A DNA stretch of 64,000 bases from Candidatus Anderseniibacteriota bacterium (lineage in GTDB: Bacteria; Patescibacteriota; Andersenbacteria; UBA10190): positions 66,182 to 130,181 of the forward strand of contig JBBDZC010000008.1 of NCBI GenBank assembly GCA_040900375.1, written 5' to 3'. The position numbers were made by a program, and so were the translations under genes. Of this stretch, positions 17,612 to 60,208 are shown piece by piece. The notes below the pieces were generated by a model. It was not told the origin of the DNA and ran no database searches. It saw only the letters and a list, made by a program, of their open reading frames with translations. How positions within the stretch are numbered: position 1 is the stretch's first letter; every line of letters begins with the position of its first letter.

Positions 17612-18658
17612 ATGACTGCGGGTAAAAAAACTGCACTAGCGAAGCCACGAGTGGTGGTCTTGGGTGGCGGCAACGGTACCTCGCGCCTATTGCGGGCCTT
17701 GTTGCCGCGTCTTAATCAGGGCGAATTGGAGTCGCTCTACGCCTTGATTCATATGTCTGACGATGGGGGTTCTACGGGCCGGTTGCGGGAACAGTACGGC
17801 GTGGCGGCTATGGGTGATTTAACGCGGTGTCTGATGGCCTTGAGTACTTTTCAGGGAGACATACGTGGTGATGAATTTTTGCGGGCGCTGGAGTATCGCT
17901 TTACCGCCGGAGATTTTACGGGGCATACACTGCGTAATATTTTTTTAACGGCGCTGGCAATGACGAGTGATATTGATACGGCGCTGGCGACTATGGCGCG
18001 TATTTTACAGGTGCCTAAGTACGCCGGGGCGGTGCCAACCACGCTGACAACCTTAACAGCACAAGCAGTGATTACCTTCGATGGGGCGTCTAATCTCCTG
18101 GGGGAAGGTGAGTACTCAATCGCGCACAAGGTTAACATGCAAGCTGACCCGCGCTGGCAGCCCGGCGCGGTTAAAGTTCAATTTGCTGAAGGTGATGTGC
18201 CGCTCAATCCGCGCGCCGCGGAAATTTTGCGCCACGCGACGCACATTATTGTTGCCCCTGGTCATACCTATGGCACCATCTTACCGACTTTGGCTCTGCC
18301 CGCCTTGCAACGCGCAATTACTGACAGCCCGGCGAAAATCTACGTGGTGATGACGCTCTTGACGACACCGCGGCAGACGGTCGGGTGGAGTGGTGAAGAT
18401 TTTGTGCGGGTTTATGAGTCATACTTAGGGCGGGCCGTCACCGCCGTGATTGCTAACCGCGGCGAGGCCCCGGTTAAACTAGTAGCCGGCCAAGAATGGG
18501 TGACGTTCAAAGAACAAGAACATCCCTATCAACTGCTCCAGGCAGCGGTGGTTAATACGCTGACGCCAACGGAGCAGCCAGGTGACCGGGTGCCGCGGGC
18601 TATAGTTGTCCACGACAGTGCCAAAATTGGCACGCTCTTGGCGCAACTTTTGCAGTAA
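17612..18658 (+). CDS. YvcK/CofD-family (UPF0052) gluconeogenesis-factor-like protein
   Basis: The product contains VVLGGGNGTS…MSDDGGSTGRLR, the YvcK/CofD signature. Confidence 0.8.
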   Translation: MTAGKKTALAKPRVVVLGGGNGTSRLLRALLPRLNQGELESLYALIHMSDDGGSTGRLREQYGVAAMGDLTRCLMALSTFQGDIRGDEFLRALEYRFTAGDFTGHTLRNIFLTALAMTSDIDTALATMARILQVPKYAGAVPTTLTTLTAQAVITFDGASNLLGEGEYSIAHKVNMQADPRWQPGAVKVQFAEGDVPLNPRAAEILRHATHIIVAPGHTYGTILPTLALPALQRAITDSPAKIYVVMTLLTTPRQTVGWSGEDFVRVYESYLGRAVTAVIANRGEAPVKLVAGQEWVTFKEQEHPYQLLQAAVVNTLTPTEQPGDRVPRAIVVHDSAKIGTLLAQLLQ

Positions 18659-30269: not shown

Positions 30270-30336
30270 AGAGATTATGACAAATATAGTATTGCCTTTA
30301 TGGTACCGCTACGGTTTACTAAAAAGTAGACAACGT

Positions 30337-31941
30337 ATGCGATCAACTATTTTCCTCGCCAAGGCTCGTGGGGGATTGATGTCTCGGTTAGGGCTTGTAG
30401 CCCTGGTCTTGTTCGTCATCGGGGGATTGGGGGTATTTTCTGCCTCGGCTGCCGCCACGCCTTGTACGAGCACTGATATTCGTTGGGCGAGTTCATCCAA
30501 TACCATCTACATTTTTGGGGAAAACGTTGTGTGTACCCTAATGGACATTGACCAACTGGTACCCAAGGCGAATCTCGCCCTAGTTAATCCGACCGAGCAT
30601 ATCTGGTTTCTGGGTACTAACTTAGTGGTGCAACAAGGGGCCACGTTGCAACTCCATGGCACCAGCATTGGTGGCGATGTGGACTATTTGCGACTCAAGA
30701 GTAACAACACCTCTACTACCCATAGCATTGTCTGGATCCGGGCTGATTGGGGAATAATTGATATCGACACGACCAAAATTACTTCTTGGGATGAGGCCAC
30801 GGGCGAAACCGATAAAGAATATGAACAATATCGGCGATCATTTATCCAAGCCCGGTCACGGTTGGCGCTCGATGGTGTGACCCCTAATGAATCGCACATG
30901 AATATTAAGAATAGTGAAATTGGGTACTTGGGCTACGCGGGGGCGGAAGCTTACGGCCTATCATGGAAGGTCAATGGGAAAGAAGAAAATCTGTTTGATT
31001 TGGTCAATATCTATGGCGAGGTGATTAATAATCGCATTCACCACAACTATTTTGGCGCTTACACCTACGGCGCCGAGGGCATGCACTGGCAAGGCAATGA
31101 ACTTGATAATAACGTGGTCTATGGTCTCGACCCCCACGACAACTCCGATAACTTAGTGATTGAAGATAACGACGCTCACCACAATGGTTCGCACGGTATT
31201 ATCTGCTCGCGTTTCTGTGACCACTTAATCATTCGCAATAACGTGGCGCGGGATAACGGCGGCAACGGCATCATGCTGCATCGGCTCACCGACTTTTCTT
31301 TAATAGAAGGGAATGAAACCTTTAACAACAGTGATTCGGGCATCGCCGTTTTTGACAGCCACCACAACACGATTCGCGGCAATAGAAGCTATGGCAATGC
31401 CAAGGGCATACGCTTCAGCGTGGGCAGTTCGCATAACCTAGTAACCGAAAACCAGATTCACGATAACGATTCTTATGGCCTTTACTTCTATCAGGGCAGT
31501 GACGCCCCCACGAATTCAGGCGACAGCGGGCGGCCCCACGATAATCAGTTCATTAATAATGAAGTCTCGGGCAGCGGCATCTATGGTCTTAAAATGAAGG
31601 AGACTGACGATAACCTCTTTCAAGATAATCACTTTACGGATAACGGCCGATCTCTCTTAATTGAGTTGAGTAGCCACAATCGTTTCGAGAACAATACGAT
31701 TGAAGACAACAGCGAAACGGGGATCGTCTTAAGCGGGGCTTCCGACCACGAACTTGTTGGCAACCTCATTGAACACAACGGTGACGTGGGTATCTATCTG
31801 AAGAAGGAAAGTGACAATGCCGTCATTACCAATAATACTATCCGCCAACACAATAAGTACGGGATTCGGGTAGTGGATAGCGAGGGGGTGACAATCGAGG
31901 ACAACATCTTTGAAGATAATGGTCAGGATATCAGTTCGTAG
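30337..31941 (+). CDS. Secreted right-handed parallel beta-helix protein (AlgG/NosD-like)
   Basis: The product has a signal peptide or TM segment and many beta-helix repeats (…HHNYFGAYTYGAEGMHWQGNELDNNVVYGLDPHDNSDNLVIEDNDAHHNGSHGI…). I chose the start at Met 30337 because the ORF track start at 30211 overlaps the upstream gene. Confidence 0.65.
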   Translation: MRSTIFLAKARGGLMSRLGLVALVLFVIGGLGVFSASAAATPCTSTDIRWASSSNTIYIFGENVVCTLMDIDQLVPKANLALVNPTEHIWFLGTNLVVQQGATLQLHGTSIGGDVDYLRLKSNNTSTTHSIVWIRADWGIIDIDTTKITSWDEATGETDKEYEQYRRSFIQARSRLALDGVTPNESHMNIKNSEIGYLGYAGAEAYGLSWKVNGKEENLFDLVNIYGEVINNRIHHNYFGAYTYGAEGMHWQGNELDNNVVYGLDPHDNSDNLVIEDNDAHHNGSHGIICSRFCDHLIIRNNVARDNGGNGIMLHRLTDFSLIEGNETFNNSDSGIAVFDSHHNTIRGNRSYGNAKGIRFSVGSSHNLVTENQIHDNDSYGLYFYQGSDAPTNSGDSGRPHDNQFINNEVSGSGIYGLKMKETDDNLFQDNHFTDNGRSLLIELSSHNRFENNTIEDNSETGIVLSGASDHELVGNLIEHNGDVGIYLKKESDNAVITNNTIRQHNKYGIRVVDSEGVTIEDNIFEDNGQDISS

Positions 31942-32011
31942 ACTCGGCGCACGACTGCAGACATTTAGCACTCGCCGTATCTCTCCCCCGCTCGCGTGGG
32001 GAGTAATTTTA

Positions 32012-33202
32012 ATGAGCAGCGTGGGGCTGGGTTTCCTGGCTTATAGCGCCGGGCTTTTTCTGGCGTCGCCACTTTTGCTCTCGCTCGCGCACTCGCGCAC
32101 ACTGGAGTCTCTGCCGGCGAGTGTCATACTCTCCACAGAAATAGTAGGGGAAGTACTCCTTGAAGGATCACCGCCCGTGGCGGATATCCAGACGCCCGCT
32201 TTGTTGCCGCCCAGTCTATTGCCAAGTCCGGTGCTTGCCGCCACTATCTTGGTGAGTCCCACTGGTGTGGATGCGCCTGACCGGGGGATAGGTGGTCGTC
32301 CGTTGCGGACTGTATCGCAGGCTCTACAGCGCGCCCGGCCAGGAGATGTGATCGAGGTGCAAGCGGGCGAGTACCAGGAACACATAGTGACCACGACTGC
32401 GGGGCAAGCGCAGCAGCCAATTACGCTCCGGGCGCAGGGTCGCGTGGTTTTCAAGGGTGATCAAAAGCACGGGCGGCTGATGGAGGTACGGCACGACTAT
32501 TACGATATTTCGGGCTTTGAATTTACGAACGCCGATATTCTCCTGTGGCTTGAGGGTGCCAGGTACGCCAAGATTACCAATAACTATTTTCATGAAGCCC
32601 AGGGTGAATGTGTGCGCTTCAAATATCACTCGACGCATAATCTCTTTGCGCATAACCGCGTAGAATTTTGCGGGCGAGAGGATTTTGGCGGCGGCGGTGA
32701 TGGTAAAAATGGCGAGGGCCTCTACCTCGGTACTGCTCCCGAGCAGCTTGATCGCAACCCAACGCCCGAGACTGACCAGACCAACGCGAACACTATTCGC
32801 GCTAATACGTTTAATACCCGGGGGAACGAGTGTGTTGATATTAAAGAAGGAGCGAGCGAGAATGTTGTGGAGTTTAATGACTGTACGGGCCAACGCGATT
32901 CCGAGAGCGGCGGGTTCGACGCCCGCGGCAGCGGTAATATTTTTCGCTACAACACCAGCTACGGTAACCTCGGGGCCGGGATCCGGTTCGGCGGCGATGA
33001 GGAAAGTGATGGTATTAACAACCAGGCCTACGGCAACGAGCTCTACCAGAATGAAAATGTGGCCATAAAAGTAATGCGCTTACCCCAGGGGCTTATTTGT
33101 GGTAACAAAGTTTCTGCAAATGAGAGCGGGTTTTCTAATAACAAGAGTATCCAGAATCCAGCTTGTCCTTTTCCGCTCTCGCCACCAGGCCGGCCTTCTT
33201 AA
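32012..33202 (+). CDS. Secreted pectin-lyase-fold (DUF1565-like) beta-helix protein
   Basis: A signal peptide is followed by RTVSQALQRARPGDVIEVQAGEY, a typical N-terminus for lyase or hydrolase beta-helices. More beta-helix repeats follow. I chose the start at 32012. Confidence 0.6.
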   Translation: MSSVGLGFLAYSAGLFLASPLLLSLAHSRTLESLPASVILSTEIVGEVLLEGSPPVADIQTPALLPPSLLPSPVLAATILVSPTGVDAPDRGIGGRPLRTVSQALQRARPGDVIEVQAGEYQEHIVTTTAGQAQQPITLRAQGRVVFKGDQKHGRLMEVRHDYYDISGFEFTNADILLWLEGARYAKITNNYFHEAQGECVRFKYHSTHNLFAHNRVEFCGREDFGGGGDGKNGEGLYLGTAPEQLDRNPTPETDQTNANTIRANTFNTRGNECVDIKEGASENVVEFNDCTGQRDSESGGFDARGSGNIFRYNTSYGNLGAGIRFGGDEESDGINNQAYGNELYQNENVAIKVMRLPQGLICGNKVSANESGFSNNKSIQNPACPFPLSPPGRPS

Positions 33203-33726: not shown

Positions 33727-34827
33727 TTACTCAAGGCAGGCGTTAAATTGTTGGACTTGCTGATTGAGGCGTGTCATTAAAGCTTTGGCGGCCTCAATCT
33801 TACTATTTAAAATTGTTACCTGCTCGTTATAGATGCGCTGTTGTTCTTGTAATACTCTCACCGCCTGATTATAGGCAGTTTGTTGCTGCCGCGCTTGATC
33901 AACTAACGCTTCGCCTTCGGCTTGGAGCCGTTGGCCTTCATCCCAATACGGCTGGGCTTGCTCGCGGGAGCCAGTTTCTTGGTAGATTTTATTCCCTTCC
34001 TCTATTTTAGCGTTACCGGCGGCAATCGTTGCCTCGGCTCGGGCGATCAACGCTTCAATTGCAGTCAATTCCTGGGCGAGGCTGTCTTCTTGGCTCTCAA
34101 TTTCTTGCCGCGCCTGGTCGAGGGTGGCACTTAAGGCGGCGGTTTCTGCTTCAATTTGTTCAAGTTGGGTGCGCAGACTTTCATCGGGTAGTGGACAGGT
34201 GCCGAGCGGCAGCGCGAAGGTTTGCACTGCAAGCCACGTGCGCTGGCCCTCGAAGGTGCCGGGAGCGGCGGCAATGCCAATCTCACTAAATTTCTCGTGC
34301 AAAATGTTCTCGCGGTGGCCAGGGCTATCCATCCAGGCTTGGACGAGGGCAACGTCGCTGCCAAAATTGCCGAGCGCCAGATTTTCACCGACGCGAATGT
34401 ACTCATAGCCTACGCCCTCGACCCAATCAGCCGGGCCTTTGCCGTCAGGCCCGACATGTTCGAAATATTGCTGGGCAAACATGTCCTGCAGCTTTTGCGC
34501 GGCGGCGCGATTGAGCAGCGTGTTGGCCGTGAGCGGCGCCTGACCGGCGACTTGTCGGTGTGCATTGGTTTCCTGCAGGATACCGCCCTGGGTGAGCGTA
34601 CCAGCGTGTGGCTGATCAGGGCCCCGCAGGGGTGGGGGCGTTATGATGCGGCGGGGGTCGTCAAGCAATTCGTCGAGGGAGGGCAGCGCCGCTAAGTCAT
34701 CGAGCACTACCCGCTGTTGGGGTGAGGACTGATACCATGTTATGCCGAGGATACTCGCCAAGATGATCAGGGCGATAACTATAACTGCTGCCAGCGGCGT
34801 AATGTATCCCCTTGAAGTCATCAACAT
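33727..34827 (-). CDS. Membrane-anchored CAP/SCP/PR1-like domain protein with a long C-terminal coiled coil
   Basis: The product has an N-terminal TM segment and a CAP motif (…VQAWMDSPGHRENILHEKFSEIGIA…). The C-terminal 170 aa or so are Q/E/A-rich heptad repeats. Confidence 0.7.
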   Translation of the reverse strand: MLMTSRGYITPLAAVIVIALIILASILGITWYQSSPQQRVVLDDLAALPSLDELLDDPRRIITPPPLRGPDQPHAGTLTQGGILQETNAHRQVAGQAPLTANTLLNRAAAQKLQDMFAQQYFEHVGPDGKGPADWVEGVGYEYIRVGENLALGNFGSDVALVQAWMDSPGHRENILHEKFSEIGIAAAPGTFEGQRTWLAVQTFALPLGTCPLPDESLRTQLEQIEAETAALSATLDQARQEIESQEDSLAQELTAIEALIARAEATIAAGNAKIEEGNKIYQETGSREQAQPYWDEGQRLQAEGEALVDQARQQQTAYNQAVRVLQEQQRIYNEQVTILNSKIEAAKALMTRLNQQVQQFNACLE

Positions 34828-35005: not shown

Positions 35006-36088
35006 TCAGGGTGCGGTGTTGTGGAGATCAACTGAAATATTGATATCTCCAGAAGTTACCGTGCCGCCGGTGGTGTTGTCTTCCGCCGTGTTGCCACCAG
35101 TGGTGGCGTCAACAGTAATAGTGTTGCTGATTTGTGTCTCTGTCGTGCTGGTTATATCGCACTCACTGCTAACTTCGGTATTGTTTTCATTCGTCGAGCC
35201 AGGGCCGGTATTTTCATTGCGCTGCTCAATATTTACATCGAGATCACAGTTTGCAGCGGGTAAGGGAGAAGGTGAAGGACTGACGCTGGGCTCTGGAGAG
35301 GGACTGGGAGAAACTGAAGGCGATGGCTCGGTTGAAGGCGTAGGTGAGGGAGAGGGGAAAATAGCGGACGTGGAAAATTGACTGTTAGTTATAGCTGCGG
35401 AGTCTGAAAAAACTGCTAACGTGGCAGGGACAGTCACCAAAAGAACGGCAAAGGCTGTCGCTCCTTTAAGTAATAAGCGCGGTTGGCGCAGCTGTCGCCA
35501 AGCCTGCTTCATAGCGGCGAGTTCTTGCAGGATAACTAGCGTTGCCGGCAGCAGAATGGCAAGCGTAAAACCGGTTTTAGTGTGGAGCCAGCGCAGTAAG
35601 TATCCTAGATACGGAATAGACATATCGGCTGCGCCGATCACGAAGCCGTGCGGCACTAGTTTAGAATCAGCAACATTATTAGCGTCACCTTGAGTGCGAT
35701 AAGCTAGGCCTTGCTTCGTGGTGACATTCTCAATAATGCGGTGCGTGGTAGTGCCTTTGGCCGAACGAAATGTAATGATGTCGCCGGGGGCATAGGCCAG
35801 CTGCTCTTTCACGGTAATGACGGCACCGGTGGCGATGACGGGCTCCATGCTGCCAGAGCGCACGACGAAGAGTTCGGTAGTACGAACGGTATGCCATATC
35901 CCGGCGCTGGCGGTAATTACTGCTACGAATAGGAAAAATGTTACTACTTGCCTGACGCGGGATTGAGAGGTAGTAGGCAAGCGAATTTGGCTGTGATGTT
36001 GCTGCAACGGGCGAAACTCTGCGTAAGTAATCACGCGTTCGGAAGTTGGCCGTATTTGTGGTGGTTGAATGCTATCCATGAGGGACAA
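35006..36088 (-). CDS. SipW/Sec11-type (archaeal-type) signal peptidase I with a C-terminal substrate-like extension
   Basis: The N-terminus has a TM segment and the SGSMEP catalytic motif, then a second TM. A signal-peptide-like segment follows (MKQAWRQLRQPRLLLKGATAFAVLLVTVPATLAVFSDSAAITNSQFST), then a Pro/Ser linker and one copy of the TGGN…NTTGG…SGD repeat. Confidence 0.75.
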   Translation of the reverse strand: MSLMDSIQPPQIRPTSERVITYAEFRPLQQHHSQIRLPTTSQSRVRQVVTFFLFVAVITASAGIWHTVRTTELFVVRSGSMEPVIATGAVITVKEQLAYAPGDIITFRSAKGTTTHRIIENVTTKQGLAYRTQGDANNVADSKLVPHGFVIGAADMSIPYLGYLLRWLHTKTGFTLAILLPATLVILQELAAMKQAWRQLRQPRLLLKGATAFAVLLVTVPATLAVFSDSAAITNSQFSTSAIFPSPSPTPSTEPSPSVSPSPSPEPSVSPSPSPLPAANCDLDVNIEQRNENTGPGSTNENNTEVSSECDITSTTETQISNTITVDATTGGNTAEDNTTGGTVTSGDINISVDLHNTAP

Positions 36089-36156
36089 GGGCGATTGTTT
36101 TAATCACCCTTGCTGCCTCACCGATTAACCTTTTAGTTAGCAATTATTCGGCTTAT

Positions 36157-36825
36157 TCAAGGGAGGGGTGTTGGTTCGGGTGTTGCTTCAGGTGTGCTCT
36201 GTGTGCCAGTAAACTCGGCATCGAAGTTGACACTTTTATTAGTAGCTTCGCTATTAATATCTAGGGTAGCTGTCATGGTACATCTGGCTTCATCGGAGCC
36301 TTCTCCATCAACTGTGCCGTCGTTCGGCCCAAGTGTGCCAAGGCCACCAGTTGGAATACCGCCATCATTTTCCCAGTCAGACAATGGCTTGGCGTCAACT
36401 GATCCATCTCCCAGAGTCTCACCATCATCACCGACATCGCATGAGAATCCAACGGAAAGATCTTCTTTGATGTCAGTGGAGTTGGCAGGAAGTGTCTGGA
36501 TGTTCTCAATAAGAACGCTAAGATCAAGGCTGACCTCACTTTCAGCGCTGCTATTATTTTTTAGCCAGAATTCAAATTCTGAAGTTTGACCCGGCAGCAT
36601 GTTTTCAACTACAGGACCCTGAATACTATTAAGGTATGCTACAGGGCTATTGCCTTCCTGTGCAATCAGAAGATCTACGTTACCGGTGGCAAATGTGCTG
36701 TTTTCAAGCGTGGCAGTGTCAGAGAAGAGTGCACTTGAGACACCGGCAACTGCTGCAAGTACCGCAAGGATAACAGCGCCGCTTACAAGCAAGCGCATAG
36801 TAGGATGAATATTTGTTAAGGTCAT
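36157..36825 (-). CDS. TasA/camelysin-family (peptidase M73-like) secreted protein with a SipW-cognate signal peptide
   Basis: After the N-terminal hydrophobic region comes …SSALFSDTATLENSTFATGNVDL…, the motif characteristic of SipW substrates. A GGAGGTG ribosome-binding site lies 8 nt upstream. Confidence 0.7.
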   Translation of the reverse strand: MTLTNIHPTMRLLVSGAVILAVLAAVAGVSSALFSDTATLENSTFATGNVDLLIAQEGNSPVAYLNSIQGPVVENMLPGQTSEFEFWLKNNSSAESEVSLDLSVLIENIQTLPANSTDIKEDLSVGFSCDVGDDGETLGDGSVDAKPLSDWENDGGIPTGGLGTLGPNDGTVDGEGSDEARCTMTATLDINSEATNKSVNFDAEFTGTQSTPEATPEPTPLP

Positions 36826-37735: not shown

Positions 37736-38362
37736 ATGTCGTTCAAGAATGTAGTGCAATTGTTGTTGCTCGGAACTGTGACGCTTAGCCTGGTTGCAGT
37801 TATCACCCCGAGCGCGGCGGCTTCGCATATTGATTGGGAACAACGTCGCGCACAGCGGGAAGCGGAGCGGGAGGCGCGGCGCCTGGCGCGCGAGAACCCG
37901 AGCCCGACGTGCCGGTGTTCAGCCAGCTTGGGCTTGGCGCGGCCGAGTCTGCAGTTTACTAGTGGCGGGGGCTTAACTTTGACGCCCCGGGTTGATGTCA
38001 GTATTCGCACACGCGGTGATCACGAGGCGCCACCGTGGGTGGCCGAGTTGGCATATAGCGGCACGACCGAGTATGAGTCGGATGATGTGAGTGTGCCGGC
38101 GGGAGTGGCATTTAGCGGGACACAGCAGGTAGCGGCCGGATCATGCGGTGATACGTATACTTTCCGCGGACTGGCGTTACCAGATGTCAGCCTCACTGGC
38201 TTGATCCGCTCCCTGGTGGGTGTAGATCAAGAACTTGAAGGAACGGTGCGGCTGCACGCGACGCTCAATAGCTGCGAGCTGGATGAGGAGCAGCGTCAGT
38301 TTAGCTTCCGGGTACAGGAGTTTGGGAATCTGAAGATAGGCGGGTGGCGGTCGGCGCGGTAA
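37736..38362 (+). CDS. Hypothetical secreted protein
   Basis: The product has a signal peptide (…LVAVITPSAAAS). I recognise no domain. I chose it over the overlapping minus-strand ORF. Confidence 0.45.
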   Translation: MSFKNVVQLLLLGTVTLSLVAVITPSAAASHIDWEQRRAQREAEREARRLARENPSPTCRCSASLGLARPSLQFTSGGGLTLTPRVDVSIRTRGDHEAPPWVAELAYSGTTEYESDDVSVPAGVAFSGTQQVAAGSCGDTYTFRGLALPDVSLTGLIRSLVGVDQELEGTVRLHATLNSCELDEEQRQFSFRVQEFGNLKIGGWRSAR

Positions 38363-38389
38363 CGTCGCACCAGCAGCAAACAAGGGAAG

Positions 38390-38413
38390 TTATCCACAGA
38401 AATCTGTGGATAA
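38390..38413. promoter_or_regulatory. Inverted pair of perfect DnaA-box 9-mers (TTATCCACA gaaatc TGTGGATAA)
   Basis: Both 9-mers match the consensus exactly and are separated by 6 nt. They lie about 220 nt upstream of the repeat-protein gene. Confidence 0.45.
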
Positions 38414-38632
38414 CCATCCTTGCAGGGGGAAGAAGTTGTGGTACGAAGGATACAGGTCGAAAACGTGTTGATTTAGGGGGAGCCAACCTAAGAGGACACG
38501 ATTTCTAAGGAGGGGGACCATTTGATCTTATTGATTACCAAGATCGGTGGAAGAGAATCGTGTTTTTTGTTTATCCGCTTTCACACACAAAACTCGCATG
38601 CACCATGAAGCTATGAGAGGAGGTGAGTACAG

Positions 38633-39748
38633 ATGAAGAATACATTTCGCGCACTCTTTGGCGTATCTGCACTCGCACTCTTACTAGTTGCCGCTCCTGT
38701 GTTGGCAGCAGAAGTAGATGTGACTGCCGAGAACGTCATGACGGGAGCTGATTCTGACAACAACAACGACACTGATGTTGACAACGACTTAGATGTTAAT
38801 GTTGACAACGTTGGCAATGTGAGCAACTCTGCCAGCGCGGCCGTAACCACGGGCAACAATGAGCAGAACGAAAACACCGAAGGCGGTGACGTGGACTCTG
38901 GCGCGGTTGATGCCTCCACTGACTGGGAGAGCATCGTCAATGCCGGGGCGGCTTTGTTGGACAATGGGGATGGCCTAGAAGTGTCTGCTGATTTCAGCAA
39001 CGACACAACGGGCGCTGATTCCGACAACGATAATGATCTCGATGTAGATCATGATGTTGATCTGGACTTACGCAACATCGCTAATATTCTGAACTACTTA
39101 GCATTGTCTGCCAACACTGGCGACAACGAGCAGAACAAGAATACAATGGGCGGCGAGCTCACGACGGGTGATGTAACTGTTGATTCAATGATTGCCAATT
39201 TGGCAAACAATGGCGCCGGTTACGCTAGCCTTGGCACCACCCAGGTGGATGTCAGCGGCAGCAATCACCTCACGGGAGCTGATTCTAACAACAACAACGA
39301 TGTTGATGTTGACAACGACTATGATCTTGATGTTGACAATACTGCCAACCTCACGACAAGCGTTGTGATTAATGCCCATACGGGCGGCAACGAGCAGAAT
39401 CGCAACACTCAGGGCGGCTCTATGACTACGGGCAATGTGGAAGTTTCAACGAAAGTTGAAAACTCTGCTAACAACAATTCCAGCATTGGGATTGGTGGCT
39501 CAAGTCTCGCCGTCACGGTAGAGGCTTCCAATGACACAACCGGTGCTGATTCCGACAATGATAATGATGTAGACGTTGATAACAACGTTGACATCGATGT
39601 CGACAATACCGCTAATGTCTCGAATAATCTGACCGTAAGCGCCAACACTGGCGACAACGAGCAGAACAAGAACACCCAAGGCGGTGGTGTTGAGACTGGT
39701 TCAGTCTCCATCAACTTTGAGGCGTTCAACGAAGTCAACAGCAATTAA
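38633..39748 (+). CDS. Secreted Asp/Asn-rich protein made of four tandem repeats of about 90 aa (unclassified repeat family)
   Basis: The product has a signal peptide (…APVLA|AE). Each repeat reads TGADSDN(D/N)ND-(D/V)x-acidic DxDxD run …NTG(D/G)NEQN(K/R)NT(Q/M)GG…TG(D/N)V. It has a strong ribosome-binding site. Confidence 0.7.
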   Translation: MKNTFRALFGVSALALLLVAAPVLAAEVDVTAENVMTGADSDNNNDTDVDNDLDVNVDNVGNVSNSASAAVTTGNNEQNENTEGGDVDSGAVDASTDWESIVNAGAALLDNGDGLEVSADFSNDTTGADSDNDNDLDVDHDVDLDLRNIANILNYLALSANTGDNEQNKNTMGGELTTGDVTVDSMIANLANNGAGYASLGTTQVDVSGSNHLTGADSNNNNDVDVDNDYDLDVDNTANLTTSVVINAHTGGNEQNRNTQGGSMTTGNVEVSTKVENSANNNSSIGIGGSSLAVTVEASNDTTGADSDNDNDVDVDNNVDIDVDNTANVSNNLTVSANTGDNEQNKNTQGGGVETGSVSINFEAFNEVNSN

Positions 39749-39772
39749 TTTGTCTGTTTGATTTTTGTGCAA

Positions 39773-39796
39773 GGGGGATAAGTTTTGGCTTATCCC
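39773..39796. promoter_or_regulatory. Inverted TTATCC-type pair (GGGGGATAAG ttttgg CTTATCCC) upstream of the large repeat-protein gene
   Basis: I read this directly. It lies about 35-55 nt upstream of the 39830 start. Confidence 0.35.
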
Positions 39797-39829
39797 TCTC
39801 CATGAGCATCATTTAACGTTAGGACTTTT

Positions 39830-42769
39830 ATGAACAATCGTTTGCGCCGCAGTCTGACAAGGATTAAGAAGAGCCTGGTACTCGGAGTAATAGTCTGGTT
39901 GAGCGTGGTAACCCCAGCGGTGACTTTTGCGCAAAGCGTGGATGCAACGGAGGAAACCGCCAGTGCGACTGAATGTACCGGGGCCGGTTGCGGCCAGGGC
40001 AGTGATCAGGGAGTGGATCAGGGAAGTGGCCAGGGTGGCCTGTCGGCCGAGGATCTCGGAGCTGATGAAACGGGTGAATTGCCGGAAGGGGTCATCGATA
40101 CCCGCCAGGGCGCCAGCCAGGGCTCGACTAATGGCGTCACGGCAGCCAACACGAACACTGGTACGAATTCGACAAACACAGCCGGCGTGACAGCGACTAA
40201 TAGTACCACGACTGGTATTGCGAACACGGCTCTGGATACCACGAATGCCGCCGCGACGGGAACAACTGGCGGCAACACGAGTAGTAACAACACGGGGGGC
40301 ACCGGGATTATCACGGGTTCAGCCGGGATTGGTGTTACCCAAGTTAAAAATGATAATACCGCCACGGTGAACGGCACCGCTGGTTTACAGGTAGAAGGCC
40401 ACAACGGCAATTACGTGGGTGATTTGAACTTAGGTTTTGGGGCGGGGACAGCTAATTTATCAGGCGGCAGTTCAATCCGCGCGGTCAATGAGGCGACGGG
40501 GGCGGGCTCAACTAATAACGTGGGCATTGCCACGCGGACAGAAGAGCTCAATGAGGTGCAAAACGATGGGCGGATTGATAATATCTTGGATTTAGCGGCG
40601 ATTACGGGACAAAATGTGGCGAATAAGAATACGGGGGATGCAGTGATCACCACGGGTGATGCAAATGTGGCAGCGACTCTTGTTAATTTGTTAAATACAA
40701 CGGTGATTAATGGCGACTTGTGGATTACGGTGGCAGACATTTTTGGCAACCTCGAAGGCAACATTAATCTGCCTGACTTCTCGAGCTGGGTCGCGGCGCA
40801 TCTCCTGGGGATTGAGGTGGCGAATGAAAACACTGGGACAAACTCAACCAATGCGATTGCGGTTGATGTGTCAGATCGCGCGACCACGACGATTGATAAT
40901 GACGCTGATATTACCACGACGGTAAATGCGGAGGCTGTTACTGGACAAAACGAAACGATGGCTAATACCGGCGGAGCCGAGGTTACCACGGGCGATGCCC
41001 AAGTTTCAGCGGGTGCTATTTCGATCGCCAATACCACCGTAGAAGGCGGCAACTGGGGTTTGGTGATTGTCAACGCGCTCAATCGCTGGCTCGGGTTTTT
41101 AGTGGGCGATAGCGGCGAAGTCCGCGCTTTATCGCAAGACGAGACGTTGCATGAGATTGCCGCGCGTAATACTAATACGGGGGCGGATTCTGATAACACG
41201 ATTGGGGTGGAGGTAGAACGAGAACGTACCACGACGGTTGCCAACGACGCGGTGATTAATAACGAGATCAACGCGCAGGCGATTACTGGCCAGAATGAGG
41301 CGAATAAGAATACGGGTGGGGCGCAGATTGCTACCGGGGATGCCAATGTGCAGGCCACGACGGTGAATATTGCTAATACGACCGTTAAGGACGGCTCACT
41401 CTTTATTGCCGTCGTTAACATTTTTGGCGACTGGCTTGGTGATCTCTTCTATGGCGGCAGCGCTCTGGGCACGACCGCGACTGGGCCCGCGAGTGTGGTG
41501 GTGGCCGAGGCGCGCAGTAGCGAGACGGGGGCGGACTCGGCTAATACCATTGATATCAACTACGATCGCCACCAGGAGACAACCATTGATAATGAAGCTG
41601 ATTTGGCCACGACCCTGAATGCCACGATTGATACAGGCAGCAACCGGGCCAGCCGTAACACCGGCGGGGCGCTGATTGATACGGGGGATGGGGCCCTGGC
41701 GCTGCATGCACGCTCGGCCGCCAACTTGACGGGTATCGCGGGCGCGGCGGGCGTGGGTATCGCGATCCAGGGTTTAAACGAGACGACGGGCGCTAATTCC
41801 CAGAATCGGATCCGGGCGCACATTAATGATGAGCATATTATGACAATTAATAACGACGCTAATGTGAGTACTGTCATTGGTGATCGTCAGGTGCCGGCGA
41901 TGGTTAATACGGGCAATAATGTCGCGAACCAGAATACTCTCGGGGCGATGATTATGACCGGTGATATTGCGGCCGAGGTGGCGATCCATAACCTGGTCAA
42001 TCAAGTCTTGGTTGCTTTAACCGGGCAGGGCATTGTTGTTGACGCCGATTTTGCCAATCGTCTTACGGGGGCGTTGTCGACGAATAGTAATGAGCTGACG
42101 GTTGAACAACAGGCACTGCTGGCAGTGCTCAATCGCGGCCTCGTTGATAATATTATTAACTTGCTCCTGAATACCGGTGGCAATACGGCGAATGAAAACA
42201 CCGGCGGCGGGGCAATTTCAACAGGTGACATTTGTGTTGAGGGTGTGGTGAAAAATGTGGTTAATGACGTGAGCGCCACGGGCGTGGGCGGAGCCTCGCT
42301 TGATCTTGATCAGGAGGCTCATCTGCACACCGCTGCCCAGCTCGGTGCGACCACCGGAAACAACGAGGCTCATCGCAATACGGGCAAGCAGCAGGTGACT
42401 GATGCGGAAGGTATCTGTCCCAAGCTCGCTGTGGTAGTCACCCCGTCACCATCGCCATCACCAACTCCCGCCCCGGAAGAAGGTCAAGGCGGCGGTGAGG
42501 AAGCGGGCGCAGAGGCACATGACGAGGAAGAAGCCCCGGCAGCCGCGGGTGGGGCCGCGGAAGCAGAACCAAGAGTTGCCGCAGCGGTAGAGATGCCACC
42601 CGTAGCCGAGCGGATCTTGCGTCGTTTCCCGGTGGCGGGCGGAGAACAAGCCGCCATGATTTTGCAAGGCAAAAAGCGTCTACCGTGGCCTTTCTTTGTG
42701 GCCATGAGCCTGCTGTTAGTGGGTACAGCGTGGCGCTTTGATATTCGTGCCCGTGCGGCACAGCGGTAG
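39830..42769 (+). CDS. Large secreted surface protein (979 aa) with about 10 copies of the same ~75 aa repeat, a Pro/Ser linker and a C-terminal hydrophobic anchor
   Basis: The product has a signal peptide (…AVTFA|QS). Repeats recur as …A(I/V)TGQNExxxNTGGAx(I/V)xTGDAxVxAxxVNxxNTTV…. The C-terminus reads …TPSPSPSPTPAPEE… then an acidic Ala-rich stretch, WPFFVAMSLLLVGTAW and RFDIRARAAQR. Confidence 0.75.
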   Translation: MNNRLRRSLTRIKKSLVLGVIVWLSVVTPAVTFAQSVDATEETASATECTGAGCGQGSDQGVDQGSGQGGLSAEDLGADETGELPEGVIDTRQGASQGSTNGVTAANTNTGTNSTNTAGVTATNSTTTGIANTALDTTNAAATGTTGGNTSSNNTGGTGIITGSAGIGVTQVKNDNTATVNGTAGLQVEGHNGNYVGDLNLGFGAGTANLSGGSSIRAVNEATGAGSTNNVGIATRTEELNEVQNDGRIDNILDLAAITGQNVANKNTGDAVITTGDANVAATLVNLLNTTVINGDLWITVADIFGNLEGNINLPDFSSWVAAHLLGIEVANENTGTNSTNAIAVDVSDRATTTIDNDADITTTVNAEAVTGQNETMANTGGAEVTTGDAQVSAGAISIANTTVEGGNWGLVIVNALNRWLGFLVGDSGEVRALSQDETLHEIAARNTNTGADSDNTIGVEVERERTTTVANDAVINNEINAQAITGQNEANKNTGGAQIATGDANVQATTVNIANTTVKDGSLFIAVVNIFGDWLGDLFYGGSALGTTATGPASVVVAEARSSETGADSANTIDINYDRHQETTIDNEADLATTLNATIDTGSNRASRNTGGALIDTGDGALALHARSAANLTGIAGAAGVGIAIQGLNETTGANSQNRIRAHINDEHIMTINNDANVSTVIGDRQVPAMVNTGNNVANQNTLGAMIMTGDIAAEVAIHNLVNQVLVALTGQGIVVDADFANRLTGALSTNSNELTVEQQALLAVLNRGLVDNIINLLLNTGGNTANENTGGGAISTGDICVEGVVKNVVNDVSATGVGGASLDLDQEAHLHTAAQLGATTGNNEAHRNTGKQQVTDAEGICPKLAVVVTPSPSPSPTPAPEEGQGGGEEAGAEAHDEEEAPAAAGGAAEAEPRVAAAVEMPPVAERILRRFPVAGGEQAAMILQGKKRLPWPFFVAMSLLLVGTAWRFDIRARAAQR

Positions 42770-42904: not shown

Positions 42905-43810
42905 ATGCCGACTGCTCTACCGAAAAAATACCTTGCCCTTGGGGCCGTGCTACTGGTGGCGGTGGCGGGACTCGTCATTGCCAGTTTTATGGTGGCCCAG
43001 CGGTTCAATAAGCAAGCCCTGGCGCAAGAAGCCTGGCTGAAATTGACGGCAGCGCCGAGCTACCATGCCCGCGCGGAATTACTACTCAATCTTCCGGTGC
43101 GCCTGCAAGGGCGCGAGCGCCCACTCAACCAGATTACACTCCGTACCGAAGGCGATGTTGTCCGCGATACCACCGGTGTACCAGAATTCACGGGCACGCT
43201 CTTTACCGAGGCTCGCGGACGAGGGACCGTGTTGTTTGCTGATGGGCAGCTTCGGCTACTGGCCGAGGCTGTTGCCTTTCGTTTGGAGAATTTGCCGGTG
43301 CTGGTTAACCCTACGGGGAGCTTAGTTGAGAAGTGGACTTATGTAGATAGCCGGTTGCTGACAACACGTAACGGCCCCGAGATTCGCCAAGTTTTGAGCG
43401 ACGTTTTTAGCCAGCTGGCGTATCAGGGTAAAGAGCAGGATAATGGCGGGGCGATCTGGCGCTACGCGGGGAGCTTAAGAGCGGAAGATGAAGCCCGGCT
43501 GATCGCTACCTTGCAGCACCAAGTTTCGGGCAATCATGGCTACCATATTATTGCTCGTCTCTTACAAGCCTACGATGTGCAATCGCTGGTGGTTGATGTG
43601 GCGACCGAGACACAGGAGGTGCGGACAATAACGGTGACGTTTGTGATGCCAGAAAGTGCCTCATCGGCGAGTGCGCTCGCGGTCTTGAATTTAGCTTTTA
43701 GTGATTACGGGAAAGCAGTCGTGATTGATCGCCCCGTCAAGCAGTTGACGGTCCGTCCGGAAATTTTTTCTCGCATTGTGGGTACGGGCGAAATTTTGCC
43801 TCAACCATAA
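42905..43810 (+). CDS. Hypothetical membrane-anchored protein
   Basis: The product has an N-terminal TM segment (LALGAVLLVAVAGLVIASF). I recognise no domain. Confidence 0.45.
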   Translation: MPTALPKKYLALGAVLLVAVAGLVIASFMVAQRFNKQALAQEAWLKLTAAPSYHARAELLLNLPVRLQGRERPLNQITLRTEGDVVRDTTGVPEFTGTLFTEARGRGTVLFADGQLRLLAEAVAFRLENLPVLVNPTGSLVEKWTYVDSRLLTTRNGPEIRQVLSDVFSQLAYQGKEQDNGGAIWRYAGSLRAEDEARLIATLQHQVSGNHGYHIIARLLQAYDVQSLVVDVATETQEVRTITVTFVMPESASSASALAVLNLAFSDYGKAVVIDRPVKQLTVRPEIFSRIVGTGEILPQP

Positions 43811-43939: not shown

Positions 43940-44425
43940 ATGCCCTTCGCGACTCTGCAGCACCAGTCTGCCGAACAACAGACTCTCATCTTCTCTAATC
44001 CTGAAGAGGCTTTGGCGTTTACCCACGAGCTTCGAAAACGCATCCACCGAGCGCCACGAGGGAGCACACATAGCCTGCGCGATATCGTGGCCCAAGCGGT
44101 AGCCGAGCAATTTGCACAATGGGGCGAGGCGGTCGACAGGGTGCGGGAACCCTGGCAGCACAATCGGGCCGAGCACCAAGAAGCGCAGCGTTTAGTTGAG
44201 GTGGCTTTTGCGCATGACCTACCGACAGCCCTGCGGCGCGCGCGGCAGAGTTCTCATTACCCGCGGAATCTTGATTTATTCCACGATGCCCTCACGGCTG
44301 AACTCTACCGTATCCTCCAGCCGCATCACCCCAACCGCCAGCCACTCGGCAGCTGGAGGCTGACAGCAAGTATGTGCATGGCGGCCGCTACCTTGTTGAT
44401 AGTTTTGTTGTTCATTGCCGCCTAG
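43940..44425 (+). CDS. Hypothetical protein with a C-terminal TM segment
   Basis: The ORF fills the gap upstream of the ATPase gene. The evidence for it is weak. Confidence 0.3.
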   Translation: MPFATLQHQSAEQQTLIFSNPEEALAFTHELRKRIHRAPRGSTHSLRDIVAQAVAEQFAQWGEAVDRVREPWQHNRAEHQEAQRLVEVAFAHDLPTALRRARQSSHYPRNLDLFHDALTAELYRILQPHHPNRQPLGSWRLTASMCMAAATLLIVLLFIAA

Positions 44426-45980
44426 TATGTCGCCAGCCTTATTTTCTGCCTTGATCTTTCTGGGGGCCGGCGCGGTGGGGGTCATGCTGTGGCTGGTGGC
44501 GCGCAGCCTGCGCGAGTACCTACGGATGCGCCTCCCGCTTGATCAACAGAGGCTGCCGTCGCGAGATACCAGTCAGGAGCCTTCGACCAAAGCTATCAAG
44601 GGATCGATGGCGCCGCCTGGCTTGCCGACCGAGGGGGTTGGACTTGGTCACAATGTATACGGCGGAAAAGAGACTCCGATTTATTTGACGGAAGCTGATC
44701 GTCGGCGGCATTTGTATCTTATCGGCCAACCCGGCACGGGGAAGAATAATCTATTCTTCAACATGATTTTACAAGATATGCGCGCCGGCCGCGGCGTCGG
44801 CGTAGTTGATCCGCGGGGAGAACTGATTGAAGATCTCTTGCTCCATGTACCGCCGGCGCGGCGCCAGGATGTGATCCTTTTTGATCCCCAAGATACCCAG
44901 CGTCCGCTCGGGTTTAATGTGCTGACGGTGCGCGACGAGGCCGAAAAAGAGATAGTGATTAATGAAGTGGTCAAGATTTTGCATCAGCTCGCCATGAGGC
45001 TTAGTCCGGAGTCGAAGGGATCAGCCTTCACGCGTTACCTGGATCACGCGCTGTTGGCGGTGATGGAAGATCGGCAAGCGACTTTGCTTGATGTACCTCG
45101 TCTATTTATTGACAGGGATTTTCGGGCAGCGATTGTTGCCCACAGCCATAATCCGGTCCGGCGACAGTTTTGGGAGCAAGAGTTTGAGCGGGCACACCCG
45201 GGGCAATTAGTGGTTGACCGGCTACGCTATGTGATGAGCAAGCTGGGCCGGTTTATGAACAACAGCGTGATGCGCAACATTATCGGCCAGGAGAACTCGC
45301 CGTTTGATCTTCAGGAAATTATGGATCAGCAAAAGATTCTCTTAGTTAATCTCGCCCCGCGCAGTTTAGGTAATATTAATTCTGATTTATTAGGCGCTGT
45401 CTTAGTCGCCAAAATGCAAATGGCGGCAGGCAAGCGGGCTAGTTTGCCCGAGTCGGCTGGTGCTACCTTCTATCTCTACCTTGATGAGTGGCAAAATTTT
45501 ACTACTGACAGCATGACAGCAGTCTTATCAGGGGCTGGTCAGTATCCTTTAAGTCTTAATTTAACGCATCAGTTTACCCAGCCGCTCGACGCACCGGTGC
45601 AAAAAGCGATTTTTGACAACGTGGGGACAATTGTTAGTTACCAGGTTGGTGAACAAGATGCGACCGCGCTGGCGCCGCTATTTGCCCCAATCTTTTCCGA
45701 GTATGACCTGTTAAATTTAGAGCGCTTTACGGCCTATGTTCGCCTGCTGGTGAAGGGAGTGCCGCAGCCACCGTTTAGTTTGCGCCCGCCACTGCCACCA
45801 GCTTATGGGGATGCCGCGGGCCGCGATGCGATTCGGATGCATTCGCGTACTATCTACGGGCGGCTGCACTCGCAGGTAGAAGAAGAAATCTTGCAGCGAT
45901 TGCAGCTCGGGGCAACCCGACTGCACCACACTTCATTACCAGAGCCGCAGGCAGCAGCGTCATCCGTGCAGGTGCGCTAA
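44415..45980 (+). CDS. TraD/TraG/VirD4-like (FtsK/HerA superfamily) coupling-protein-type ATPase
   Basis: The product has an N-terminal TM segment and a Walker A (GQPGTGKNN). It contains VVDPRGE (compare DPKGE in type IV coupling proteins) and a Walker B (YLYLDEWQNF). Confidence 0.65.
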   Translation: MPPSMSPALFSALIFLGAGAVGVMLWLVARSLREYLRMRLPLDQQRLPSRDTSQEPSTKAIKGSMAPPGLPTEGVGLGHNVYGGKETPIYLTEADRRRHLYLIGQPGTGKNNLFFNMILQDMRAGRGVGVVDPRGELIEDLLLHVPPARRQDVILFDPQDTQRPLGFNVLTVRDEAEKEIVINEVVKILHQLAMRLSPESKGSAFTRYLDHALLAVMEDRQATLLDVPRLFIDRDFRAAIVAHSHNPVRRQFWEQEFERAHPGQLVVDRLRYVMSKLGRFMNNSVMRNIIGQENSPFDLQEIMDQQKILLVNLAPRSLGNINSDLLGAVLVAKMQMAAGKRASLPESAGATFYLYLDEWQNFTTDSMTAVLSGAGQYPLSLNLTHQFTQPLDAPVQKAIFDNVGTIVSYQVGEQDATALAPLFAPIFSEYDLLNLERFTAYVRLLVKGVPQPPFSLRPPLPPAYGDAAGRDAIRMHSRTIYGRLHSQVEEEILQRLQLGATRLHHTSLPEPQAAASSVQVR

Positions 45981-59939: not shown

Positions 59940-60208
59940 TTTCTTTATCGTCTTAGACGAGCTCGATTTGTGTGCATCAACCATATATTTCAGTACACCA
60001 TCATAACGGCAGGGCAGTCTTTTTAAGCCCTGTTGAGAGGATATTTCTCCGCTATGCTGTGTGGTACTGATAGTGACCAAAGTTTTCCACAAGACTTTTG
60101 CATGAATAACATTGGCGCCTCTGTTACCTATTGTCGTAATGACAATAGGTTGCCTGTGGTGAAGCGGCCCTATTGAGTTTTACTTTAAGTAGGGACTTAT
60201 TTTTGTTT

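Follow-up and report, generated by a model that had tools for sequence, protein, structure and literature searches.

The window analyzed here is a 64-kb stretch of DNA from Candidatus Andersenbacteria. Two open reading frames on its forward strand encode protein A (371 aa; 38633..39748) and protein B (979 aa; 39830..42769), both present as given in the original prediction. Alignment of their units reveals one repeat of about 88 to 116 aa that is common to A, B and the C-terminal tail of a SipW-like peptidase. The consensus is xxNxxTGADSxNxNxxxVx7VxNxAx3Nx3AxAxTGxNEANxNTGGGxIxTGDxxV, in which T-G..S.N and T-G.N....N-T are invariant. Protein A contains four units, as had been claimed, and they recur about every 88 aa. 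For protein B the proposed number of about 10 is too high; we count seven full units, with periods of 87 to 116 aa, and a C-terminal half unit. Leave-one-out profiles were built on the units of one protein and run against the 528 ORFs of the window. A profile of B units only recovers protein A (E 9e-54) and the SipW tail (1e-11), one of A units only recovers protein B (3e-50) and the same tail (2e-11), and neither matched any further ORF among the 528. The repeat core was said to occur once in the peptidase C-terminus, and these values bear this out, with one full unit at aa 289-360 (35009..35224, reverse strand).

Judged from its sequence, protein A is a very acidic, unanchored and secreted protein. 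A Sec signal peptide (aa 1-26, cleaved between VLA and AE) is followed by exactly four units, at aa 34-121, 122-209, 210-298 and 299-371. In its mature form it has 66 acidic residues against 5 basic ones, with a pI of about 4.05, and possesses neither a cysteine nor an anchor. The acidic D/N block that had been noted in each unit of A is not a feature of the repeat as such; it is confined to protein A and its orthologues, and B has T/N/V at this place. The block does raise the idea that the repeats bind Ca2+ as RTX-like beta-rolls, or bind ice or minerals as solenoids, with a role in ion or surface binding and not in structure; RTX, antifreeze and ice-binding proteins are indeed found among the weak structural neighbors of the models discussed below. 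However, HemolysinCabind (PF00353), the RTX beta-roll model, has no match in A or B, the GGxGxD nonapeptide is missing from both, and neither B nor the consensus of the family has the acidic block. We regard this explanation as extremely improbable.

Protein B begins with a signal peptide (aa 1-34), and the low-complexity G/Q/S/T segment that comes next contains CTGAGC as a conserved motif. Its repeat array (aa 105-865; 40142..42424, forward strand) comprises full units at 40142-40480, 40481-40816, 40817-41161, 41162-41509, 41510-41770, 41771-42052 and 42053-42319 and the half unit at 42320-42424. The first four units are of a long type, in which an additional hydrophobic insert of the form (V/I)NxFGxWxG is conserved (WITVADIFGNLEGN, WGLVIVNALNRWLGFL, LFIAVVNIFGDWLGD). 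After the array, a disordered PSPSPSP/acidic linker leads to an end that resembles a sorting signal (42626..42766, forward strand), as suggested by motif conservation and by a helix in the AlphaFold2 model (aa 953-978). In this segment a spacer of 13 aa separates RFPVAG (aa 932-937) from a hydrophobic helix (about aa 951-970), after which comes the basic tail DIRARAAQR. To our knowledge, FPVAG has not been documented as a motif for sortase. It is kept in most orthologues of B, others having LAPTG, LADTG, LAATG, LAYTG or FPTAG, and distant relatives carry the canonical LPSTG, LPLTG, LPMTG or LPITG. In one family member (P0035) the motif abuts the transmembrane segment directly, in contrast to the spaced arrangement in the window. 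In 9 of the 23 loci (L011-L018, L020) a sortase gene lies next to the cluster. No sortase gene was detected in L001-L008, nor in the 64-kb window by Pfam and by phmmer with three sortase seeds, the latter being the only check of window ORFs 14872-15387, 15514-17550, 17612-18658, 18753-20432 and 60173-63475.

Neither A nor B has a match in Pfam or NCBIfam at E<=0.1, and searches of the PDB with the repeat proteins, by sequence and by profile, were empty. By these searches the repeat is a member of no described family, as the original prediction held. A faint resemblance to DUF11 had been noted there together with the absence of a match, and this absence is confirmed: DUF11 (PF01345)/TIGR01451 matches neither A, nor B, nor the repeat profile in Pfam or NCBIfam, and the Cna-B and Big domains are likewise without a match. 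Both DUF11 and the present repeat occur in large bacterial surface proteins, but DUF11 is a beta-sandwich, whereas the repeat is modeled as a solenoid. A DUF11 domain is present in 1 of 64 family members (P0355, a distant one), as an extra module, and dockerin and collagen are further extracellular modules that co-occur in other members. The HMM of the right-handed parallel beta-helix (PF13229, Beta_helix/NosD) matched neither A nor B, in a search that did detect this family in three upstream genes (27477-33202). The family comprises 2,864 clusters at 50% identity, and all of its named members are Patescibacteria (Andersenbacteria, Berkelbacteria, Levybacteria, Staskawiczbacteria, the Parcubacteria group and the Patescibacteria group). 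We read A and B as belonging to this large family of extracellular proteins, which is undescribed and restricted to Patescibacteria. The surface proteins of these ultra-small bacteria (Patescibacteria/CPR) have hardly been studied so far.

AlphaFold models of both proteins are confident and all-beta, with a pLDDT of 80 for A and of 85-97 for the array of B. The repeat, at about 90 aa, is predicted by these models to stack into a beta-solenoid rod. The fold check suggested earlier thus returned all-beta models whose sole structural neighbors are generic beta-solenoids (SufB/D, RTX, curli, RsaA, PfbA). Since Foldseek found no significant match in the PDB and the TM-scores were very low, the exact geometry of the solenoid is uncertain. 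Signal peptides were found on both proteins, as expected if they are secreted, and together with the all-beta models this makes a surface structure the most natural reading. One such structure would be an S-layer, a two-dimensional lattice coating the cell, with B as its anchored and A as its co-lattice subunit. The likeness to RsaA, however, is only that of a generic beta-helix, no SLH/CWB2-type or other S-layer anchoring module is present in A or B, in which no Pfam domain at all was detected, and uncapped rod-like solenoids more often stack end to end. We think the S-layer reading doubtful.

The genes for A and B lie within a conserved core cassette, hyp208-A-B-hyp301. The first gene, hyp208 (37736..38362, forward strand), is identified by its conserved position directly 5' of A (L001, L002, L004-L008, L018, L019). 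Its product has a hydrophobic segment at the N-terminus, followed by a charged helical stretch (EQRRAQREAEREARR) and then a domain with conserved cysteines that ends in GxWRxxR, with three invariant cysteines and a fourth in most orthologues. The last gene, hyp301 (42905..43810, forward strand), occupies a conserved position directly 3' of B (L001-L010, L018, L019) and encodes an N-terminal transmembrane anchor and an extracytoplasmic domain without cysteine. Neither hyp208 nor hyp301 has a Pfam or PDB match. Among orthologues that are 39-65% identical, the order of the cassette and the numbers of units (4 in A; 7-8 in B) are fixed, and A is strictly co-inherited with B. These data bear on the idea that B is a sortase-anchored fibrillar adhesin by which an epibiont attaches to its host or to a surface, with A as a secreted accessory or decoy and not a co-polymer. 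The sorting-signal-like end of B, the link of the family to sortase, the beta-helical adhesins PfbA, EtpA, UpaB and SRRP among the structural neighbors and the dockerin or collagen modules of some relatives would all fit such a role. Adhesin stalks vary rapidly, however, whereas here the unit number is invariant and the identity is comparable to that of neighboring housekeeping genes; no distinct tip or ligand-binding domain is seen, and the strict co-inheritance of A also speaks against this idea, which we consider unlikely.

The third protein with the repeat is a SipW-type (archaeal/ER-type) signal peptidase I with a substrate-like tail (35006..36088, reverse strand). It scores 85.8 bits against TIGR02228 (cut-off 51.85) and contains the SGSMEP and THRI boxes. 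With the equivalog model for Bacillus SipW it reaches 102.8 bits, below the cut-off of 190, and we therefore speak of a SipW-like enzyme and not of an equivalog. TM1 (aa 48-66), a catalytic domain (SGSMEP...THRI...GDAN), TM2 (174-192) and a 16-aa basic loop come first; a third hydrophobic segment (209-227) then leads through VFSDSAAITNSQFST and a Pro/Ser linker to the repeat unit, which contains a Cys pair conserved in homologous tails. Comparison of the junctions indicates that aa 209-240 (35369..35464, reverse strand) combine a segment like an internal signal peptide with a TasA-type N-terminus: GATAFAVLLVTVPATLA followed by VFSDSAAITNSQFST mirrors AVAGVSSA followed by LFSDTATLENSTFAT in the TasA-like protein, and by eye the segment shows the SipW-cognate signal feature (...A followed by xFSD or FND). 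Tails of one unit are present on further SipW proteins as well (P0363-P0367, P0370). The TasA-like protein, of the TasA/camelysin family, is encoded in an operon with the peptidase (222 aa; 36157..36825, reverse strand) and has a SipW-cognate signal peptide; it matches PF12389 (26.6 bits, cut-off 22.5, E 6e-6) and TIGR04088 (19.7 bits, cut-off 19).

The three repeat genes had been described as adjacent. They are not contiguous, for the peptidase gene lies 2.5 kb away on the opposite strand, and the TasA-like gene, a DUF4383 gene and hyp208 intervene between it and A. SipW and TasA are neighbors of the cluster in 7 of the 23 loci and are absent from 16. The divergent layout of the window is seen also in L018 and L019, as are SipW-tail fusions, and variants occur in L001, L002, L005 and L021; a stand-alone one-unit protein is present in L021, and in L001, L005 and L021 the peptidase tail bears a lamin-tail domain in place of the repeat unit. 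It has been proposed that all of this forms one system, and in its strongest version A and B would be SipW substrates, building a single matrix-fiber system of SipW/TasA type with the TasA-like protein. The recurring layout, the adjacency conserved in those seven loci and the repeat unit on the peptidase tail in the window, in L018 and in further SipW homologues are consistent with a link. But TIGR04088, the model for the cognate signal, matches the TasA-like protein and neither A nor B, whose signal peptides are of the ordinary AxA type and give no sign of processing by SipW, and neither SipW nor TasA accompanies the A/B cassette in the majority of loci. The link to SipW/TasA goes beyond adjacency in a single genome; that A and B are SipW substrates in one such dedicated system is very unlikely. 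With 7 of 23 loci for SipW/TasA against 9 of 23 for sortase, and with the sortase-like signal on B, sortase anchoring appears to be the more general partner.

Operators of TTATCC type were also said to be shared upstream of these genes. The short spacers that precede hyp208, A and B, three in all, do contain six copies, but the TasA-SipW operon is preceded by none and the motif is not enriched across the window (35 found against 27.9+/-5 expected). The copies upstream of A are supplied by a perfect palindrome between hyp208 and A, GTTATCCACAG-AAAT-CTGTGGATAAC (38389..38414, on neither strand in particular), which consists of two inverted TTATCCACA 9-mers and as RNA would fold with -24 kcal/mol (z -8.4). 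TTATCCACA matches the DnaA-box consensus; it is kept upstream of A orthologues in five of seven loci examined. A and B are separated by a spacer of 81 bp, in which TTATCC copies form the arms, GGGGGATAAG and CTTATCCCTC, of a stable stem-loop (39772..39799, forward strand). The whole spacer yields -25.7 kcal/mol (z -3.8), and its stem-loop may set the ratio of A to B expression.

On balance we favor, with moderate confidence, the reading that wall-anchored B and secreted A form a beta-solenoid surface assembly with a logic like that of chaplins or curli; the anchoring chemistry, the co-assembly of A with B, the self-cleavage of the peptidase tail and its adaptor role are what we infer. B would be exported by Sec and held at the surface by a sortase-type signal, namely a Pro/Ser linker that may span the wall, FPVAG, the hydrophobic helix and the basic tail, ending up covalently attached to peptidoglycan or, at minimum, anchored in the membrane. 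A would be a free, acidic, four-unit solenoid without visible end caps, secreted probably in excess and joining B through solenoid-on-solenoid contacts to yield a surface fiber or coat. The membrane-anchored obligate partners hyp208 and hyp301 are candidate assembly or anchoring factors. The tail of the peptidase resembles the enzyme's own substrate, with its signal-like helix, TasA-type N-terminal strand, linker and one solenoid unit, and in this genome it might be cleaved off to serve as an adaptor that ties a TasA-like fiber to the solenoid structure. As SipW and TasA are absent from 16 loci and lamin-tail variants exist, this adaptor idea cannot be general. A bolder and rather improbable version would be a Patescibacteria-specific fiber in which B templates the end-to-end polymerization of A, while the SipW-type peptidase cuts off its own C-terminal extension and frees an adaptor, made of a TasA-type donor strand and one solenoid unit, that links TasA-like fibers to the solenoid scaffold. 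If true, an ultra-small, monoderm bacterium would have arrived anew, by way of an unrelated repeat, at nucleation of the curli/chaplin type.

Among known systems, the chaplins of Streptomyces offer a comparable logic. Their domain is about 40 aa long, hydrophobic and amyloid-forming; the long ChpA-C are anchored by LAxTG and SrtE, the short ChpD-H are secreted, and together they build a surface fiber layer. Both systems would pair a long sortase-anchored and a short secreted paralogue with one beta-rich module, and some B orthologues have motifs of the LAxTG type; there is, however, no homology in sequence or domain, the unit here is a polar, Asn/Thr/Gly-rich solenoid of about 90 aa, and the phylum is another. 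The relation of B to A may similarly be likened to that of nucleator and subunit in curli (CsgB/CsgA). Unlike the functional-amyloid beta-solenoids CsgA, CsgB and FapC, however, A and B have no Pfam match to the curlin repeat (Curlin_rpt, PF07012), and their repeat has about four times the length; their host is a monoderm, secretion by CsgG/E/F is lacking, and polymerization of A and B is a proposal. TasA, TapA and SipW form the biofilm-fiber system of Bacillus (PMC9674648, PMC10151520, PMC9245690). Here too an archaeal-type signal peptidase and a TasA/camelysin protein with a cognate signal adjoin the cassette, and the peptidase tail, like TapA, starts with a TasA-like N-terminal segment, but A and B are not jelly-rolls and lack the cognate signal. 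For the Bacillus system we found no description of a peptidase fused to a substrate-like passenger, be it a repeat unit or a lamin-tail domain. Finally, PfbA of S. pneumoniae and SRRP of L. reuteri are sortase-anchored beta-helical adhesins without detectable sequence similarity to A or B; each is a single enzyme-like beta-helix with no secreted paralogous partner, whereas B is composed of eight modular units.

Both proteins that the original prediction placed at 38633-39748 (+; 371 aa, hereafter A) and 39830-42769 (+; 979 aa, hereafter B) are encoded there as described. B is 100% identical to the hypothetical protein WEA04_01915 of a Candidatus Andersenbacteria MAG, and A corresponds to WEA04_01910. 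Regular expressions and alignment define a repeat that starts with N-x-x-T-G-A-x-S-x-N, followed by about 25 residues of alternating pattern up to N-x-A-x-x-x-N; the second half reads T-G-x-N-x-A-x-x-N-T-G-G-x-x-I-x-T-G-D and is followed by a strand closing with N-x-x-N. There are four units in A, each of about 88 aa. The estimate of some ten units in B was too high, as alignment gives seven full units of 87-116 aa, with half a unit more at the C-terminus. Units 1-4 of B have in addition a hydrophobic hairpin, of the type (V/I)NxFGxWxG, that is highly conserved. A Ca2+/RTX-like function is one rival reading of A and B; an acidic DxDxD block is limited to A and its orthologs. One complete unit is also present at the end of a SipW-like peptidase ORF (35006-36088, -). 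A profile of all units matched exactly these three ORFs of the window, and profiles built from the units of B only or A only recovered the remaining two proteins with E values of 1e-11 to 1e-54 and none of the others among 528 window ORFs. Since these leave-one-out searches retrieve A, B and the SipW-like ORF alone, the repeat is real and common to the three genes, as had been proposed. The tail unit of the peptidase does not correspond to any particular unit of A or B, with pairwise scores of 117-131 against the A units, 79-120 against the full B units and 42 against the half unit B8. At 40411-41421 the opposite strand has an ORF of 336 aa, which we regard as a shadow ORF arising from the repetitive coding sequence.

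Neither A nor B matched any entry in Pfam-A or NCBIfam, even at E≤0.1, and in 64 diverse relatives Pfam detected no domain over the repeat region. Among these relatives extra modules occur sporadically (dockerin twice, collagen twice and DUF11 once). Searches of PDB sequences, using phmmer with A and B and a search with the repeat profile, were empty or returned noise, in which we include weak matches of B to T-cell receptors (E 0.016). Together these searches bear out the claim that the repeat lies outside described families, and a literature search found no description of it. When 1.84 billion cluster representatives (clusters at 50% identity) were scanned in full with HMMER, the repeat profile matched 2,864 proteins at E≤1e-3, of which 1,709 remained at E≤1e-10. 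The matched proteins have 3 to 10 units each. The source names that could be recovered are all from Patescibacteria: Andersenbacteria, Berkelbacteria, Levybacteria, Staskawiczbacteria, the Parcubacteria group and the Patescibacteria group. The repeat family is new, large and statistically robust, and has so far been seen in CPR alone; now defined, it comprises some 2,900 clusters (50% identity) and is absent from Pfam and NCBIfam. Two MAGs (those of loci L013 and L015) are labeled “uncultured Gammaproteobacteria”. These labels are probably wrong, because the cluster of repeat genes and sortase is the same as in a Levyibacteriota MAG (L014) and because one contig is 785 kb long.

When supplied with family alignments, AlphaFold2 returned all-beta models for both proteins, with a pLDDT of 80 for A and 77 for B. 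The repeat array of B is modeled at pLDDT 85-97 over its full length; a Gly/Gln-rich N-terminal segment and a Pro/Ser-acidic C-terminal linker are disordered in the model, and terminal helices are predicted. Foldseek gave no match at E≤0.001, the best being the FapC amyloid (E 0.014), and TM-scores were below 0.1. Taken with this outcome, the all-beta models lead us to a predicted fold class, the beta-solenoid, that is without a close solved relative and is distinct from the beta-sandwich of DUF11, Cna-B and Big.

In the window, PBP1, FemAB and a Mur ligase represent the peptidoglycan enzymes, which marks the organism, a member of the CPR/Patescibacteria, as a monoderm with a cell wall. The signal peptide of A is of the standard kind (cleavage VLA|AE). 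Its mature form is Cys-free and has a pI of about 4.05, with 66 acidic versus 5 basic residues; both of its ends are repeat strands, without a capping element or anchor. In B, the signal peptide is followed by the predicted solenoid and a PSPSPSP/acidic linker; next come RRFPVAG, a spacer of 13 residues, a hydrophobic helix and, at the C-terminus, DIRARAAQR. Tested as a sorting signal, its FPVAG is non-canonical; this motif is kept in most orthologs of B, others having LAPTG, LADTG, LAATG, LAYTG or FPTAG at the same position, and in one ortholog (P0035) the hydrophobic segment follows FPVAG directly. In more distant clusters, the C-termini of small family members of 2-3 units consist of a canonical LPSTG, LPLTG, LPMTG or LPITG, then a TM segment, then a basic tail. 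Next to the repeat-gene cluster, a sortase gene (PF04203) is present in 9 of the 23 related loci compared (L011-L018 and L020), and another locus, L009, has a weak sortase-like ORF. Sortases have been recorded in CPR (PMC4736985). Family-wide, the LPxTG- and LAxTG-type ends and the adjoining sortases point to wall anchoring of the sortase type. No sortase gene was found in the 64-kb window, and B is likely held at the surface by at least its C-terminal helix. Third or fourth repeat genes occur in L017, L020, L021 and L022, with members of 2-3 units that carry canonical LPxTG beside a sortase, and L021 encodes a separate 112-aa protein of one unit with a Cys pair (6068-6406). From the one-unit protein and the LPxTG members we conclude that, outside Andersenbacteria, the clusters are multi-paralog and resemble pilus loci.

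A and B are flanked by hyp208 (37736-38362, +) and hyp301 (42905-43810, +). The order hyp208-A-B-hyp301 was found wherever the flanks are visible in 12 loci of the Andersenbacteria type (L001-L010, L018, L019); A there invariably comprises 4 units, and B 7-8. The proteins of these loci share 39-65% identity, similar to that of flanking housekeeping genes. In hyp208, a hydrophobic segment at the N-terminus is followed by a charged helix and then by a domain whose Cys residues are conserved; hyp301 combines a TM anchor with a domain that is free of Cys. Profile searches of Pfam and PDB detected no relative of either; the best PDB matches for the pair, LprG (E 1.3) and an uncharacterized protein (E 0.64), are insignificant. 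A large part of bacterial diversity belongs to the Patescibacteria/CPR, the majority of which appear to live attached to other cells. A and B might be read as an adhesin for host attachment, and if the family were an ordinary wall-anchored adhesin, the gain would be limited to a new domain family. The fixed architecture of the cassette is, however, unlike that of a fast-evolving adhesin and argues for a structural assembly.

Several other genes lie nearby. The cassette is accompanied by a protein (33727-34827, -) that joins a CAP/SCP domain to a long coiled coil at its C-terminus; it is near the cassette in L001, L002, L004-L006, L019 and L021. At 27477-33202 (+), a 930-aa fusion of GT2 glycosyltransferase, LysM and NosD-like beta-helix precedes secreted beta-helix proteins of 576 and 430 aa; this group, partly syntenic beside the cassette in L004 and L005, may be a module for exopolysaccharide synthesis or modification. 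Downstream of the cassette, at 43940-45980 (+), are hyp161 and a 521-aa P-loop protein (GQPGTGKN), neither of which has a Pfam match; both are conserved at that place in L001-L006. The P-loop ortholog in those loci sits in an open frame (stop to stop) of about 830 aa, and so the copy in the window may be shorter or have another start. Farther away, at 9186-12109 (-), a PKD and 7TM_transglut membrane protein is partnered by an ATP-grasp protein of the sugar-transfer-associated type, which has matches to the Zn_protease and aspartyl-protease families as well, and the two form a conserved, poorly understood two-gene system.

The pair at 35006-36825 (-) comprises an archaeal-type signal peptidase (TIGR02228, 85.8 bits), annotated in the database as “signal peptidase I”, and a TasA/camelysin protein with a SipW-cognate signal. 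TasA homologs have been recorded in Patescibacteria (PMC9245690). The divergent layout of the window (TasA-like, SipW-tail / hyp208, A, B, hyp301) is reproduced in L018 and L019, with an additional sortase gene in the former and a CAP protein in the latter. The pair had been considered dedicated to A and B, and export of A and B might be truly SipW-dependent. Against this, the signal peptides of A and B are ordinary, neither protein matched TIGR04088, the SipW-cognate signal, and SipW and TasA adjoin the repeat cluster in only 7 of 23 loci. SipW/TasA is an associated module and not the core of the system.

The peptidase itself is unusual. Its usual second TM segment is followed by a basic loop of 16 residues, a third hydrophobic stretch and TLA|VFSDSAAITNSQFST, the last of which parallels the adjoining TasA-like protein at its cleavage region and mature N-terminus (SSA|LFSDTATLENSTFAT); beyond VFSDSAAITNSQFST, a Pro/Ser linker leads to the single repeat unit, which has a conserved Cys pair. 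The repeat unit is also fused to a SipW-type peptidase in P0363, P0364, P0365 and P0370, and in P0366 and P0367, which are cut short, its start is present. A lamin-tail passenger (PF00932) follows the same signal-like junction in L001 (5811-7559), L005 (6355-7863) and L021 (3570-4814), and in many relatives, one of them labeled Clostridia; the passenger in L002 is an RTX-like Gly/Asp repeat region. The junction, an internal signal-peptide-like segment with a TasA-like “A|xFSD/YTD”, is shared by the window, L001, L005, L021 and P0369-P0379. Because such fusions recur in several loci, a peptidase with a substrate-like passenger is a recurrent theme, the repeat unit being one of several passengers. 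These arrangements suggest self-processing peptidase-substrate fusions. A literature search found no description of SipW-passenger fusions, and this combination, with the repeat unit here and the lamin-tail in relatives, is a separate testable oddity.

TTATCC, invoked earlier as a common upstream operator, is not enriched window-wide. In the spacer upstream of A, two inverted TTATCCACA 9-mers form a perfect palindrome with an 11-bp stem (38389-38414), and a near-identical perfect palindrome of inverted TTATCCACA lies at 15421-15444, the pair itself spanning 15422-15443; they are 36 kb and 13 kb, respectively, from dnaA. TTATCCACA matches the DnaA-box consensus. The window includes the chromosomal origin region (yidC (-), dnaA, dnaN and recF, 1-5831), with a cluster of DnaA-box-like sites just upstream of dnaA (1696-1828). 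TTATCCACA occurs upstream of A orthologs in 5 of the 7 loci examined (L001, L002, L006, L007, L008). As RNA, the palindrome upstream of A would fold with -24 kcal/mol; because the sequence itself, and not merely the pairing, is conserved, a candidate protein-binding site is suggested. The palindromes could be operators of DnaA or of another regulator, or hairpins. No tRNA gene or Rfam family was found in the window, and these intergenic TTATCC palindromes are thus not known RNA elements. The 81-bp spacer between A and B forms a stem-loop that is predicted to be stable (-25.7 kcal/mol, z -3.8) but lacks a U-tract, which would be compatible with partial attenuation yielding more A than B.

The function of the A/B system can only be inferred. 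We propose that the wall, or at a minimum the membrane, would carry B with its solenoid of 8 units directed outward, and that secreted A would dock onto B and onto further copies of A through solenoid stacking, with the help of hyp208 and hyp301. Where they occur, the unit borne by the peptidase and the TasA-like fiber would join this scaffold. An S-layer lattice is a rival arrangement for A and B. To our knowledge, the proteins of the CPR envelope, S-layer and attachment structures are almost entirely unknown, and the A/B family is a concrete lead into the biology of the patescibacterial cell surface. With its solenoid prediction, fixed four-gene cassette and surface-placing sorting signals, it is a concrete candidate for cryo-ET, metaproteomics and heterologous assembly. 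A system with surface-anchoring signals and a predicted beta-solenoid is not mechanistically unprecedented. Closest in logic are the chaplins, with long LAxTG-anchored and short secreted paralogs, and the curli proteins CsgB/CsgA; closest in anchoring and fold are sortase-anchored beta-helical adhesins. A and B are not homologous to any of these.
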